Positions 9,770-56,984 of a stretch of DNA of 64,000 nucleotides are shown in pieces. How positions within the stretch are numbered: the stretch's first letter is position 1; each line of letters begins with the position of its first letter. The translations under genes and the position numbers were made by a program. This DNA comes from Candidatus Aenigmatarchaeota archaeon (lineage in GTDB: Archaea; Aenigmatarchaeota; Aenigmatarchaeia; CG10238-14; SpSt-28): contig JAWBAC010000001.1 of the NCBI GenBank assembly GCA_038997355.1, positions 4,820-68,819 on the forward strand, given 5' to 3'. Below the pieces are notes generated by a model. That model ran no database searches. It worked only from the letters and a program-made list of their open reading frames with translations, and had not been told where the DNA came from.

Positions 9770-9870
9770 TGCCGGGGGTGGGATTTGAACCCACGACCTC
9801 CGCGTTTCTATCATCAATATCAAAGCTCATTTGATATGAGCGCGGCGTTCTGCCGCTAAACTACCCCGGC
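9770..9870 (-). tRNA. tRNA-Met elongator (anticodon CAT) with ~29-nt intron. Could alternatively be tRNA-Ile2 (CAU)
   Basis: Reverse complement: GCCGGGG acceptor, anticodon stem CCGCG/CGCGG, loop CTCATA|intron|A. Intron ATGAG pairs with exon CTCAT (bulge-helix-bulge). T-loop TTCAAAT. Confidence 0.8.
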
Positions 9871-15150: not shown

Positions 15151-15248
15151 GGGGCCGTAGTCTAGCCAGGCAGGACGACGGGCTCCAGAAATGGAGCTCT
15201 GATAAATGAGGAAACCCGTTAACCCGGGTTCAAATCCCGGCGGCCCCA
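15151..15248 (+). tRNA. tRNA-Trp (anticodon CCA) with ~25-nt intron
   Basis: GGGGCCG/CGGCCCC acceptor. Anticodon stem ACGGG/CCCGT. Loop CTCCAG|intron AATGGAGCTCTGATAAATGAGGAAA|A. Intron AATGGAG pairs with exon CTCCA. T-loop TTCAAAT. Confidence 0.8.
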
Positions 15249-16119: not shown

Positions 16120-17100
16120 ATGATTGAAATAGATGGAAGTTATTTAGAAGGCGGCGGACAAATATTAAGAACTTCAATAGCTTTATCTTGCATCCTTAAA
16201 AAACCTTTCAGAATTTATAACATTAGAAAAAATAGACCTCAACCTGGATTAAAAGCTCAACACTTAGCAGGTGCAAAGTTTGCAGCTGAATTATTAAATG
16301 CAGAAGCTAGAGGCTTAGAAATTGGTTCTACAGAAGTTACTTTTATTCCAAAAGAAGAAAACATTCCAGATTTTAAAGAAATTAATATTGGAACTGCTGG
16401 AAGTATTTCTTTGTTTTTACAAACAGTTTATCCAATAATTGCATTCTTATCCAATAAAAAAGTTAAGCTAAGAATTATTGGAGGTACTAGCGTATTGCAT
16501 GCACCAACAATAGATTATTTAGATTTAGTTAAGTTCGAAATTTTAAAATTCTTAGGTATAGAAAGACCAAAAATTAATATTATAAGGCATGGATTTTATC
16601 CAAAAGGCAATGGAATAGTAGAAATAGAAATTTACCCGATAAAAAATGTTAAAGGTATCGAATTAATCGAAAGAGGAAAATTTATCAAAAGAATTGCAAG
16701 AATCTCTGCAAACGAAAAAGTTGAAAGAATAAATAGAGAAGTTGAAGTTTTAAAAAAATTAGAAAATACTGAAATTTTTGTTAGAAACGAAAAAACTTTA
16801 AGTCCTGGATTTTCAGTTACTATTGCATCCTACTTCGAAAATTGTGTTTTGGGTGCAGATAGTTTAAACTCTTCTCAAGAAGCAATAGAAAGTTTAAAAA
16901 AATCAGAAAATTCTAATGCATGCTTAGACAAATTTATGGCAGATCAAATTTTAATTTATTTGGCTTTATCTCAAGAGAAATCAATAATTAAAGTTGAAGA
17001 ATTAACCTCGCATACATTAACAAACATTTATACTATCGAAAAATTCTTAGGAAAAATTTTCGAAATTGATGAAAATCAAAAAATAATAAAGAGAATTTAA
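16120..17100 (+). CDS. rtcA: RNA 3'-terminal phosphate cyclase RtcA
   Basis: 326 aa. N-terminal IDGSYLEGGGQILRTSIALS is the RtcA signature. Confidence 0.85.
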   Translation: MIEIDGSYLEGGGQILRTSIALSCILKKPFRIYNIRKNRPQPGLKAQHLAGAKFAAELLNAEARGLEIGSTEVTFIPKEENIPDFKEINIGTAGSISLFLQTVYPIIAFLSNKKVKLRIIGGTSVLHAPTIDYLDLVKFEILKFLGIERPKINIIRHGFYPKGNGIVEIEIYPIKNVKGIELIERGKFIKRIARISANEKVERINREVEVLKKLENTEIFVRNEKTLSPGFSVTIASYFENCVLGADSLNSSQEAIESLKKSENSNACLDKFMADQILIYLALSQEKSIIKVEELTSHTLTNIYTIEKFLGKIFEIDENQKIIKRI

Positions 17101-17102
17101 CT

Positions 17103-17241
17103 CGCCGGGGGTGGGATTTGAACCCACGCGGGCTTATCGCCCACCGGCTTTCTCTTTGATATTTTACTCATCATTACTCAGCTACCCCAGAGCTTATCAT
17201 AACTCGAGGCCGGCGCCCTGGTCCAGCTAGGCGACCCCGGC
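17103..17241 (-). tRNA. tRNA-Ser (anticodon CGA) with ~53-nt intron and long variable arm
   Basis: Reverse complement: GCCGGGG acceptor, 3-bp D stem, anticodon stem CCGGC/GCCGG, loop CTCGAG|intron|A. Variable arm TGGGCGATAAGCCCGCG. T-loop TTCAAAT. Confidence 0.75.
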
Positions 17242-17275: not shown

Positions 17276-17330
17276 TTTATGAAGAATGCCGCCGCATCTG
17301 ATAAATGATGAAATGGAGTACCTCTGATTA
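17276..17330 (+). ncRNA. box C/D sRNA candidate (2'-O-methylation guide)
   Basis: Canonical archaeal layout. C box ATGAAGA (17279-85). 12-nt guide ATGCCGCCGCAT. D' box CTGA (17298-301). 3-nt spacer. C' box ATGATGA (17305-11). 12-nt guide AATGGAGTACCT. D box CTGA (17324-27). Confidence 0.6.
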
Positions 17331-18491
17331 AGAATGATAAATTTTTATAACATCTCTATGATTCAATACATAATCTTTTCCAATTTTTCTTTTATTTTTT
17401 ACATCTATAGCATACAAAAAGTTTTTAGCTATTTCAGAATGAATTTTTTCAGCTAAATCTATAACTTTTGCATCTTTTTCTAATAAAAATGCGTTAGGCA
17501 AAACATTTCCTTTTTTATCGCTAAGTTTATTTTCATTTTCAACAGGAAAAACAACTTTATACTTCATAACATTAAAAACTAATCTATTTAATGCATTAAC
17601 AACAAAACTTCCATTATTTTTTTCTAACATTTTTCTAATCTTCTCTAATGCATCTAATTGATTTTTATTCAATTCACTTTCTTTCAAAATTTTGAATGAT
17701 TTAAAATCGTAACTAATTATTCCTTTCTTATCTAACTCTCTAAGTATTAATTCTGATAAAGCGCTGCATTCTACAACTTCTAAATCTAAATTTTCTTTTT
17801 TGATAAATTTTCTTAATTCTTCAATATTTTTGTAAGAATTTTCATCATCTATTTTATTTGCTATTATTATCATCTTTTTACTTTCGAAAAGCAAATTTTT
17901 TGCAAAAGTATCTAAATCTTTTATTTCATTTATGTGTTTTTCTATGTATTCTCTTTTTATTTTTAAACCGCTAAGCTTTTGAGTTAAAACATCTATTAAC
18001 TCTTTTTCGTTAGAATAAAATTTTGGAATGTGTTTTTGAATTATTTGCTTGTACCACTGAATTAATTCATTAATCAAAAAATTTACTTCTTCAACTACAT
18101 TCGAGCTTTCGCTTTCTATTCCTTCTAAGTTTGTTTTTCCACTTGCATCAATTATGTATGCGATTCCATCGACATGATTTATAGAAGATAAGAATTCGTT
18201 ACCCAAACCTTTACCCTTATGAGCTTCTGGAATTAATCCTGGAACATCCCAAAGAATTATTGGAACGTATCTTATTGAATTTATACAAAAACCGTCTTGA
18301 GGATTGCACTTAACATTAAAATCTTTGCATGCACATTCTGTAGATACATATGCAATCCCTTTATTTGGTTTTAGAGTAGTAAATGGAACGTTCGAAATCT
18401 TTACATCGATCATTGTAACGGCTTTAAAAAATGTTGATTTTCCTGCGTTAGGTTTTCCCACTAAAGCGATTTCAATCATATTAAGCAACAA
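17328..18491 (-). CDS. Obg-like GTPase with C-terminal TGS-like domain (DRG/YchF family)
   Basis: 387 aa. G1 GKPNAGKST, G2 TT, G3 DVPG, G4 NKID. Unusual Cys-rich insert CACKDFNVKCNPQDGFC after G2. Confidence 0.6.
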   Translation of the reverse strand: MLLNMIEIALVGKPNAGKSTFFKAVTMIDVKISNVPFTTLKPNKGIAYVSTECACKDFNVKCNPQDGFCINSIRYVPIILWDVPGLIPEAHKGKGLGNEFLSSINHVDGIAYIIDASGKTNLEGIESESSNVVEEVNFLINELIQWYKQIIQKHIPKFYSNEKELIDVLTQKLSGLKIKREYIEKHINEIKDLDTFAKNLLFESKKMIIIANKIDDENSYKNIEELRKFIKKENLDLEVVECSALSELILRELDKKGIISYDFKSFKILKESELNKNQLDALEKIRKMLEKNNGSFVVNALNRLVFNVMKYKVVFPVENENKLSDKKGNVLPNAFLLEKDAKVIDLAEKIHSEIAKNFLYAIDVKNKRKIGKDYVLNHRDVIKIYHS

Positions 18492-18532: not shown

Positions 18533-18651
18533 TGCGGGGGTCGCCTAGCCTGGTCAAGGGCGGCGGGCTTAAGGTAAAACTTAAGCTTTGATATCGATGA
18601 TAAGATACCCGCTGGCTTAGTGCCGTCGTGGGTTCAAATCCCACCCCCCGC
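18533..18651 (+). tRNA. tRNA-Leu (anticodon TAA) with ~34-nt intron and long variable arm
   Basis: GCGGGGG/CCCCCGC acceptor. Anticodon stem GCGGG/CCCGC. Loop CTTAAG|intron|A. Variable arm TGGCTTAGTGCCGTCG. T-loop TTCAAAT. Confidence 0.8.
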
Positions 18652-25884: not shown

Positions 25885-25937
25885 TAGATGAAGACACGAC
25901 GGTCAACTGAAAGATGAAGAAGGGTGTCGAATTCTGA
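25885..25937 (+). ncRNA. box C/D sRNA candidate
   Basis: C box ATGAAGA (25888-94). 12-nt guide CACGACGGTCAA. D' box CTGA (25907-10). C' box ATGAAGA (25914-20). 13-nt guide AGGGTGTCGAATT. D box CTGA (25934-37). Lies in an intergenic gap. Confidence 0.5.
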
Positions 25938-27493: not shown

Positions 27494-27593
27494 AGCCGGG
27501 GCCGGGATTCGAACCCGGGATCTGCGGGTTTCTATCGATCATTTTTCACAAAACCCTGCAGCCCGCCGCGTGAAGCCACTCCGCCACCCCGGC
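27494..27593 (-). tRNA. tRNA-Cys (anticodon GCA) with ~26-nt intron
   Basis: Reverse complement: GCCGGGG acceptor. Anticodon stem GCGGG/CCCGC. Loop CTGCAG|intron|A. T-loop TTCGAAT. Discriminator U73 typical of tRNA-Cys. Confidence 0.8.
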
Positions 27594-35822: not shown

Positions 35823-35961
35823 CGCCGGGGGTGGGATTTGAACCCACGCGGGCTTATCGCCCAGCGGATTTCTTTCTCTTTTACTTTTTGCATCATTAAA
35901 TCAGCTTCACGCCAATCTATCACTCAAGTCCGCCGCCCTGGGCCAGCTAGGCGACCCCGGC
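35823..35961 (-). tRNA. tRNA-Ser (anticodon TGA) with ~53-nt intron and long variable arm
   Basis: Near-identical exons to the 17103..17241 gene. Anticodon stem GCGGA/TCCGC. Loop CTTGAG|intron|A. Variable arm TGGGCGATAAGCCCGCG. Confidence 0.75.
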
Positions 35962-56909: not shown

Positions 56910-56984
56910 AGCGGGGTAGGGCAGCCTGGAGTGCCCGCCGGGCTCATAACCCGGAGGTCCCCGGTTCAAATCCGGGCCCCGCTA
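56910..56984 (+). tRNA. initiator tRNA-Met (anticodon CAT)
   Basis: AGCGGGG/CCCCGCT acceptor with A1:U72. Anticodon stem ending in three G:C pairs (CCGGG/CCCGG). Loop CTCATAA. T-loop TTCAAAT. Confidence 0.8.

Follow-up and report, generated by a model that had tools for sequence, protein, structure and literature searches.

Short introns in the tRNA-Met(CAU), tRNA-Leu(UAA) and tRNA-Trp(CCA) genes of an Aenigmatarchaeota archaeon carry a strand that is complementary to the anticodon loop of their own tRNA, followed by two boxes like those of archaeal box C/D small RNAs (sRNAs). The genes lie in a stretch of 64,000 nucleotides (nt) of contig JAWBAC010000001.1, called the window here. We consider it likely that these introns are intron-nested guides of the box C/D type with a single kink-loop (K-loop), which direct 2'-O-methylation of nt 34 (Nm34) and act on the precursor before splicing.

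The module has a fixed order from 5' to 3': an antisense strand, one unpaired spacer nt, a D'-type box, a short loop and a C'-type box. The antisense strand is 6-7 nt long in the window and up to 11 nt in relatives, and its target is nt 31-36 or 31-37 of exon 1. The D' box reads YYGA, the loop has 3-9 nt, and the C' box reads RUGA followed by two nt that are able to pair back to D'. The three genes and their parts are as follows.

9870..9770, minus strand: tRNA-Met(CAU) gene, elongator type, with a 37/38 intron (Rfam tRNA model, 61.5 bits)
9834..9806, minus strand: Met intron, 29 nt, UCAA-AUGAGC-U-UUGA-UAUUG-AUGAUA-GAA; exon 1 ..CCGCG-CUCAUA, hairpin loop UCAA, intron end/exon 2 GAA / A-CGCGG
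9830..9825, minus strand: Met guide AUGAGC, pairing with nt 31-36 (GCUCAU, 9841..9836)
9823..9809, minus strand: Met K-loop (motif scan), D' UUGA 9823..9820, loop UAUUG, C' AUGAUA 9814..9809
18534-18651, plus strand: tRNA-Leu(UAA) gene with a 37/38 intron and a long variable arm (ARAGORN intron mode)
18574-18606, plus strand: Leu intron, 33 nt, GUAAAA-CUUAAGC-U-UUGA-UAUCG-AUGAUA-AGAU; exon 1 ..GCGGG-CUUAAG, hairpin loop GUAAAA, intron end/exon 2 AGAU / A-CCCGC
18580-18586, plus strand: Leu guide CUUAAGC, pairing with nt 31-37
18588-18602, plus strand: Leu K-loop (motif scan), D' UUGA 18588-18591, loop UAUCG, C' AUGAUA 18597-18602
15151-15248, plus strand: tRNA-Trp(CCA) gene with a 37/38 intron
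15189-15213, plus strand: Trp intron, 25 nt, with the same module as Met and Leu; exon 1 ..ACGGG-CUCCAG, hairpin loop AAA, spacer U, intron end/exon 2 AA / A-CCCGU
15192-15211, plus strand: Trp guide UGGAGC 15192-15197, D' CUGA 15199-15202, loop UAA, C' AUGAGG 15206-15211

Excision restores anticodon loops of seven nt, as expected for the canonical 37/38 position; in Met the loop becomes CUCAUAA between CCGCG and CGCGG. In each precursor the wobble nucleotide lies opposite the fifth guide nt upstream of D' (the N+5 position), namely C34 of Met at 9838, U34 of Leu at 18570 and C34 of Trp at 15185. Because nt 34 is paired with this fifth guide nt, the wobble ribose is the predicted methylation site.

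The module is not confined to the window. The relatives L001-L013, which are syntenic contigs with a 90% and 75% identical GTPase, also have introns in their orthologues of the Leu, Trp, Met, Ser and Cys genes, with antisense strand, spacer and boxes conserved. The inter-box loop varies (in Leu it is UAUCG, CUAUAG or AUAA), as does the hairpin loop, which ranges from 6 to 15 nt. A pattern scan for the Met module in one genome per species matched at least 117 loci, and at least 53 of these have a real intron-bearing tRNA-Met(CAU); together with L002 and L003 this gives at least 55 loci and at least 48 distinct module sequences. Among the matches listed, most hosts are Aenigmatarchaeota metagenome-assembled genomes (MAGs) from hot springs and groundwater, and the others include Woesearchaeota (L084, L092), a Hadesarchaea MAG (L038) and many records named 'uncultured archaeon'; a MAG labelled Thermoprotei (L108) is a further host. 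Two matches were discarded: a 'Thermococci' locus (L066) is not a tRNA, and a Bathyarchaeia locus (L024) has an ordinary intron of the bulge-helix-bulge (BHB) type. A metagenome scan for the Leu module gave 45 validated loci with 36 distinct tRNA-Leu(UAA) sequences. When loci L001-L130 and the window were scanned irrespective of the anticodon, the module was found only in Met(CAU), Trp(CCA), Leu(UAA) and one Arg(UCU) tRNA; the remaining tRNAs with an intron in those loci are mostly without K-loops, and some ARAGORN intron calls in bacterial loci are probably false. The Arg(UCU) gene makes a fourth tRNA species that uses the module:

L060 3122-3219 (Aenigmatarchaeota MAG SKYB42): tRNA-Arg(UCU) with a 22-nt intron, AGGAAGG, U, UUGA, AA, GAUGAA, and U34 at N+5

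The hosts match tRNAs that are known targets of methylation at nt 34. Pyrococcus has four box C/D sRNAs, described for three species, that are directed at nt 34 of tRNA-Leu(CAA), Leu(UAA), Met and Trp; the one for Trp is alone among them in being the intron of its target tRNA (PMC7994747). Haloarchaea use the stand-alone sR-tMet to make Cm34 of elongator tRNA-Met (PMC4033218).

The register is constant throughout. Nt 34 lies opposite guide position 5 upstream of D' in 48 Met sequences among the matches listed (the listed Met modules below), in 36 Leu(UAA), 5 Trp and 1 Arg(UCU), and in all of them the antisense helix starts at guide position 2. This agrees with the Sulfolobus solfataricus ribonucleoprotein (RNP) structure of Lin et al. 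2011, in which substrates reportedly pair with guide positions 2-11. Of 49 hairpins, only 7 have guide position 1 paired with nt 30. The uninterrupted guide helix measures 6-11 bp, with 6 bp in 21 of the 49 hairpins and at least 8 bp in 16; helices of 9-11 bp (L038, L108, L092) extend across the 5' splice site. An alignment of 34 distinct fixed-length module strings from Met, Trp, Leu and Arg was made in which the C' box was chosen without a pairing requirement (alignment A1), and on it the N+5 pair is always Watson-Crick (C-G in 31, U-A in 3). A Watson-Crick pair at N+5 is required for methylation (PMC6009581). The target side of the helix covaries as well: the Met search pattern accepted either pyrimidine at guide position 2 regardless of nt 31, and among the listed Met modules these two positions form G-C in 38, A-U in 10 and a mismatch in none.

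The two boxes are predicted to form a K-loop with tandem sheared G.A pairs that resembles the internal C'/D' motif of archaeal sRNAs of this class. The window holds 13 tRNA genes, six of them with a canonical 37/38 intron: Met, Leu(UAA), Trp, Cys(GCA), Ser(CGA) and Ser(UGA). A scan for NNGA, 2-8 nt and RUGA-X5X6, in which X6 pairs with N1 and X5 pairs with N2 or forms U.U, found one K-loop in each of the six introns, against 0.32 expected in their 696 nt from the window-wide density of 59 matches in 128 kb (both strands). The closing pair between D' position 1 and C' position 6 changes in a compensatory manner. Among the listed Met modules, for which C' boxes whose position 6 pairs with D' position 1 were preferred, it is U-A in 39, C-G in 6, U.G in 2 and C.A in 1; in the 36 distinct Leu(UAA) sequences it is paired throughout (C-G 16, U-A 19, U.G 1); and on A1 it is U-A in 20, C-G in 10, U.G in 2 and another combination in 2. 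The covariation score of A1 was reached by none of 500 shuffles, and 93% of its cells are paired, a share that falls to 38-48% if the partners are shifted by 1-3 columns. D' position 2 and C' position 5 on A1 mostly form U.U or another non-Watson-Crick pair, and in the Trp orthologues they are U/G, U/A and C/G. A non-Watson-Crick pair is expected at the 3b.3n position of a kink-turn (K-turn). The order D'-loop-C', the conserved GA dinucleotides, the Watson-Crick pair D'1/C'6 and the mostly non-Watson-Crick pair D'2/C'5 are all shared with the internal C'/D' K-loop of archaeal sRNAs, and the loop length of 3-9 nt matches that of the stand-alone sRNAs in the window. Unlike in that motif, D' is usually UUGA instead of CUGA, which is compensated by an A at C' position 6, and the K-loop stands alone, without a partner terminal K-turn.

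The guide pairing has to be compared with the fold needed for splicing. In a BHB, the partners of nt 32-35 are the four nt ahead of the last two intron nt, and the splice sites lie in 3-nt bulges formed by 36, 37|i1 and by i(n-1), i(n)|38 (PMC4090602). Such a fold can be drawn for the introns studied here, often imperfectly. In 39 of the 48 listed Met modules AAA, made up of the last two intron nt and nt 38, directly precedes the 3' stem strand. The central helix of the BHB has four of four pairs in 5 of these modules, three of four in 28 and two or fewer in 15; most have a UAAG strand with three of four pairs and a C34.A mismatch. Within the window it is complete in Leu, where UAAG (18601-18604) can pair 4/4 with C32-A35 (18568-18571), and reaches 3/4 in Trp and 2/4 in Met. 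The BHB strand is located directly 3' of the C' box or overlaps it, and in Leu introns of the CUGA...AUGAAG-AAA type it includes the GA of C' itself. Since the BHB strand abuts or overlaps the C' box, the guide/K-loop fold and the BHB fold are mutually exclusive. Nearest-neighbour energies, which contain no K-loop or protein term, are as follows.

Leu: guide fold -11.1 kcal/mol, BHB fold -6.2
Met: guide fold -9.3 kcal/mol, BHB fold -2.8
Trp: guide fold -10.8 kcal/mol, BHB fold -2.6

The guide fold is thus favoured by 5-8 kcal/mol, and the hairpin of guide and target is part of the minimum-free-energy fold of Leu (z = -3.25) and Trp (z about -3.3). Because the guide fold is the more stable one, the strand that pairs with the anticodon is not simply a component of the BHB, and the mutual exclusivity implies a refolding step before splicing. 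The known guide in pre-tRNA-Trp shows the same kind of competition between guide pairing and BHB. With this, the motifs, their register, covariation and distribution, and the mutual exclusivity of the folds are established.

By analogy with box C/D RNPs, we infer the following course of events. L7Ae would bind the K-loop of the intron and recruit Nop5-fibrillarin, and fibrillarin would then add a methyl group to the 2'-O of the wobble ribose; the products would be Cm34 in Met and Trp and Um34 in Leu. As long as the guide fold persists, it would sequester the anticodon loop and, in relatives with longer helices, also the 5' splice site, and it would tie up nt on the 3' side of the C' box that are required for the splicing fold. 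Before the intron is removed, the RNA would then change to the BHB, where the 4 nt before the terminal AA|A are the partners of nt 32-35. Since this refolding is needed before the intron can be removed, methylation would precede splicing.

An intron-nested box C/D guide is known from euryarchaeal pre-tRNA-Trp, as in Pyrococcus sR50 and Haloferax volcanii (Clouet d'Orval 2001 and Singh 2004, summarised in PMC4090602, PMC11408192 and PMC7994747); a typical Trp guide intron has 65 nt (PMC4090602), and reviews of 2014 and 2024 call it the unique case. Like the introns described here, it resides in the 37/38 intron of its own target, is antisense to the anticodon loop with C34 at N+5, and has a guide fold that competes with the splicing BHB. 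It differs in being about 65-105 nt long, with both C/D and C'/D' boxes and two guides (for C34 and U39), whereas here introns of 25-33 nt contain one box pair and one guide, and the hosts include tRNA-Met, tRNA-Leu(UAA) and, in one relative, tRNA-Arg(UCU). New with respect to the known Trp guide are therefore the single box pair, the single guide, the small introns and the new host tRNAs; the tRNA-Trp intron of the window itself is, by its sequence, a reduced version of that guide. The stand-alone nt-34 sRNAs, those of Pyrococcus for Met, Leu(UAA) and Leu(CAA) and the haloarchaeal sR-tMet, act on the same tRNAs and the same nt. They are separate trans-acting genes of full bipartite structure, whereas the guide here is half-sized and lies inside the intron of its target. 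The sR-tMet guide is said to act on the intron-containing precursor and to have an unusual C'/D' motif that is still bound by L7Ae. A canonical BHB intron, such as that of the Bathyarchaeia tRNA-Met mentioned above, shares the 37/38 position, the pairing of nt 32-35 and the 3-nt bulges. It consists of the BHB and a small hairpin; the introns described here have in addition a more stable strand pairing with the anticodon and a K-loop, and their BHB central helix is often imperfect, with the C34.A mismatch. No account of such mini guides was found in the literature searched, which did not include key earlier studies, and a prior description of K-loops in tRNA-Met introns is possible.

The original prediction made from this DNA held that the Met and Leu introns share a core. 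The string in question, AGCTTTGATAT(T/C)GATGATA, has exactly two occurrences in the window, one in the intron of tRNA-Met(CAU) and one in that of tRNA-Leu(UAA). As a 19-nt core, AGCTTTGATATYGATGATA, it has two exact copies in the 64 kb, both strands counted (9827..9809, minus; 18584-18602, plus), whereas dinucleotide-preserving shuffles give an expectation of 0.15 matches even with up to three mismatches, and two matches in 1 of 100 shuffles. The sharing is thus real, and the core is enriched and does not reduce to the AT-rich background that had been named as the alternative. The 19-mer consists of the last three antisense bases (AGC), the spacer and the K-loop. It does not lie wholly outside the exon-pairing segment as had been supposed, since its AGC ends the stretch that pairs with nt 31-33, and it closes with UA(A)G, part of the strand able to pair with nt 32-35 in the BHB. 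The likening of GATGATA to a C/C' box was apt: GAUGAUA is the C' half of the K-loop, while its D' partner UUGA in the same core had been overlooked, as had the register of the upstream anticodon-pairing strand with D', which puts nt 34 at the methylation position. The strings quoted from the Cys and Trp introns (ATGATCGATAG, CTGATAAATGAGGA) do occur there. An embedded conserved element had been proposed next to intron transposition or duplication. The former is borne out by a K-loop present once in every window intron and by its covarying stem; the latter is not needed, because nearly all shared positions are functionally constrained and the free loop differs between orthologues. The identity of Met and Leu follows from G31-C32-U33 in both tRNAs (hence AGC) and from the combination of UUGA with AUGAUA boxes in both. 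A minor contribution of gene conversion between the two introns is possible.

Other explanations for the likeness can be considered. A chance product of AT-rich, low-complexity intron sequence would be conceivable in a window of about 26% G+C, where short GA- and UGA-rich strings are common and the loose K-loop motif has its 59 matches, but it is already refuted by the two exact 19-mers, by the motif in six of six introns and by the dozens of sequences that covary. Recent common descent through transposition, duplication or gene conversion, with a functionless core, would account for the observation that within one genome the Met and Leu modules are at least as alike as orthologues, a comparison based on only three genomes with both genes. 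The window loops UAUUG (Met) and UAUCG (Leu), the modules AGCUUUGAAU(CG/AA)AUGAUAAGAAA of L003, and the termination of all six window introns in RAG-AAA fit this explanation too, and intron transposition between archaeal tRNA genes was reportedly proposed by Fujishima et al. in 2010. It would, however, leave unexplained that each tRNA keeps an antisense strand specific to its own anticodon across the phylum and that the boxes covary as a structure. Moreover, the shared positions are the constrained ones, whereas the loops differ in L001 and L002 (Met UAUUG, Leu CUAUAG), and pairing with C32-U33, together with the 3-nt bulge at the splice site, accounts for the terminal RAG-AAA. Common descent is for these reasons quite improbable as the main cause.

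A further explanation accepts the K-loop as a real L7Ae site but gives it no part in methylation. L7Ae on the intron would serve as an RNA chaperone or architectural element, which could assist an AT-rich intron of weak structure in presenting its splice sites to an endonuclease of relaxed specificity or protect the pre-tRNA, and the hairpin with the anticodon would be merely structural. The presence of a K-loop in all six introns, including that of Cys which has no nt-34 guide, would agree with this, as would the lack of the second box pair that is usually needed for methylation. The BHB central helix is imperfect, with 2/4 pairs in the window Met and typically 3/4 elsewhere, and endonucleases of DPANN archaea are thought to be broad in specificity (PMC5829648). 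However, such a role explains neither the constant spacing of one nt between helix and D', with nt 34 at N+5 in four tRNA species, nor the presence of the module in tRNAs known as nt-34 targets of box C/D guides. The K-loop also competes with the BHB strand instead of supporting it. We regard a binding site for L7Ae only as rather unlikely.

Several observations weigh against a guide function. A single K-loop is all that the Met, Leu and Trp introns contain: their guide is not preceded by a box C, no box D follows C', and a second guide is lacking. The absence of the terminal C/D pair is the main weakness of the guide interpretation: archaeal RNPs are reported to methylate efficiently in vitro only when C/D and C'/D' motifs are juxtaposed (Tran et al. 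2003). A half-mer RNP seen in crystals is considered inactive (PMC6239191). The guide helices of the window are 6-7 bp long without an upstream box that would delimit a 12-nt spacer, and the 6 bp of Met and Trp compare with about 10 bp in canonical guides. The Cys intron shows that intron K-loops are not strictly tied to wobble methylation. Genes for L7Ae, Nop5 and fibrillarin were found neither in the window nor in the Aenigmatarchaeota loci, which is uninformative at 64 kb. The 100% pairing of the guide helix on A1 is partly due to construction, as the exon strand was located via complementarity, and related sequences are not independent events. Independent of that construction are the position of the complement, which falls exactly at tRNA nt 31-36, and the covariation of the K-loop stem. 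A circularised intron that recreates a 12-nt spacer from C to D' was also considered, and it was dropped as the lengths obtained, 13, 11 and 17 nt in Met, Trp and Leu, are not constant.

In spite of these points a guide for Nm34 remains the preferred explanation. Whether it takes the form of a natural half-mer guide acting in cis, widespread among Aenigmatarchaeota and other small-genome archaea in the introns of tRNA-Met, Leu(UAA), Trp and at times Arg(UCU), is in our judgement an evenly balanced question. If so, the introns would be retained as guides for wobble methylation, the switch between guide fold and BHB would enforce methylation before splicing, and a functional archaeal RNP of the box C/D type could form on a single box pair, perhaps with two pre-tRNAs paired on one Nop5 dimer.

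Two variants of the tRNA-Met genes were seen among the relatives. Beside the 37/38 intron, many Aenigmatarchaeota genes seem to have some 10-25 extra nt inserted between D-arm and anticodon stem (L019, L053, L061, L064, L067, L077, L078, L082, L086, L090, L094, L096), and this insertion looks like a non-canonical second intron. In the Aenigmatarchaeota MAG AUK218 (L021) a C-box-like AUGAUGG lies upstream of the anticodon, in the supposed anticodon stem, and CUGA follows the antisense strand; this may be a differently placed or fuller guide.

The other intron-bearing tRNA genes of the window and two stand-alone sRNAs also contain box C/D-like elements.

27593..27494, minus strand: tRNA-Cys(GCA) with a 37/38 intron
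27555..27530, minus strand: Cys intron, K-loop GUGA-AAA-AUGAUC at 27549..27537 (motif scan)
17241..17103, minus strand: tRNA-Ser(CGA) with a 37/38 intron
17202..17150, minus strand: Ser(CGA) intron, 53 nt, AUGAUAA, 12-nt guide GCUCUGGGGUAG, CUGA, GUA, AUGAUGA; K-loop 17181..17169
35961..35823, minus strand: tRNA-Ser(UGA) with a 37/38 intron
35922..35870, minus strand: Ser(UGA) intron, 53 nt, box C/D-like; K-loop CUGA-UUUA-AUGAUG 35904..35891
17279-17327, plus strand: stand-alone box C/D sRNA (scripted scan), AUGAAGA, 12 nt, CUGA, UAA, AUGAUGA, 12 nt, CUGA
25888-25937, plus strand: second stand-alone sRNA, AUGAAGA, CACGACGGUCAA, CUGA, AAG, AUGAAGA, AGGGUGUCGAAUU, CUGA

No antisense to its anticodon is present in the Cys intron. 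Its 5' GGUUUU, together with G37, could pair with GAAACCC (intron end and nt 38-41), which would place C39 at N+5. Judged by the sequence, this makes C39 a weak candidate, and there are only two orthologues, both near-identical; position 39 is also the second methylated site of the pre-tRNA-Trp guide. The two Ser introns look like nearly complete box C/D sRNAs, each with a C-like box (AUGAUAA and GUGAUAG), a guide of 12 nt, CUGA, a loop and a C' box (AUGAUGA and AUGAUGC), and no recognisable terminal D box. Conservation of the Ser(CGA) guide GCUCUGGGGUAG extends to all relatives, and L109 has it in a diverged form. A target for it was found neither in tRNAs nor in the SRP (signal recognition particle) RNA nor in 1.5 Mb of the relatives' loci, which include no rRNA, and rRNA is its probable target. 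For the guides of Ser(UGA) and the stand-alone sRNAs, searches of the window and the same rRNA-free 1.5 Mb gave only their own antisense strands and chance matches; an 8-bp match of the Ser(UGA) guide to the D-arm of tRNA-Cys was set aside as probably due to chance.

The stand-alone sRNA at 17279-17327 sits between tRNA-Ser(CGA) and a gene for a YchF-like GTPase (17328-18491, minus strand); this GTPase has 100% identity to one from a Candidatus Aenigmatarchaeota MAG, of a DPANN lineage. The sRNA has an internal K-loop with a 3-nt loop, and this motif, CUGA-UAA-AUGAUGA, is nearly the same as CUGA-UAA-AUGAGGA of the Trp intron. Its D' guide AUGCCGCCGCAU, conserved in all relatives (L001-L011), resembles the complement of GCGGCGG, nt 26-31 of several tRNAs of the window, which makes Gm26 a possible target. 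The sRNA at 25888-25937 is conserved in L001 and L003; its D guide pairs with the tRNA T-loop GGUUCGAAUCCCU with C56 at N+5, so that it could be an RNA guide for Cm56. RNA-guided Cm56 is known in Pyrobaculum, and most archaea use the protein enzyme aTrm56. Both sRNAs are conserved in relatives and give weak full-length Rfam matches (sR2/sR5 and sR3/sR35) below the gathering threshold; the strict bipartite pattern TGATGA..CTGA..TGATGA had no match in the window, and a looser scripted scan gave both. Two canonical sRNAs are an indirect sign of a box C/D system in the organism. Protein partners were searched by motif and tblastn, with approximate queries for fibrillarin and L7Ae; the sole match was one L7Ae in a Bathyarchaeia locus. 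By the same means no RtcB was found in the window. The RNA 3'-terminal phosphate cyclase RtcA (Pfam RTC; 16120-17100, plus strand) adjoins tRNA-Ser(CGA), and its adjacency to the cluster of tRNA-Ser, GTPase and tRNA-Leu is kept in most relatives; a link to RNA end processing or splicing is possible.

The window also contains an archaeal SRP RNA, GC-rich tRNAs and a separate initiator tRNA-Met gene (56910-56984). Default ARAGORN missed five of the six intron-bearing genes, among them tRNA-Leu(UAA), which is also below the Rfam gathering threshold, and it mis-called Trp with a four-base anticodon. The intron mode detects the Met gene but labels it Ser(aga) with a misplaced intron. In practice, annotation pipelines for tRNAs and sRNAs overlook or mislabel such intron-bearing genes.

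If the guide interpretation is true, the tRNA-Trp intron would no longer be the single known intron that guides the modification of its own tRNA. A K-loop on 25-33 nt would be a natural minimal substrate with which a box C/D RNP without a second box pair can be tested, and the need for that second pair has been left open by in-vitro and structural work. The canonical introns that a large group of uncultured archaea has in tRNA-Met, tRNA-Leu(UAA) and tRNA-Trp would have a function and a selective reason to be kept, and they would show how small genomes fold guide RNAs into their tRNA genes.

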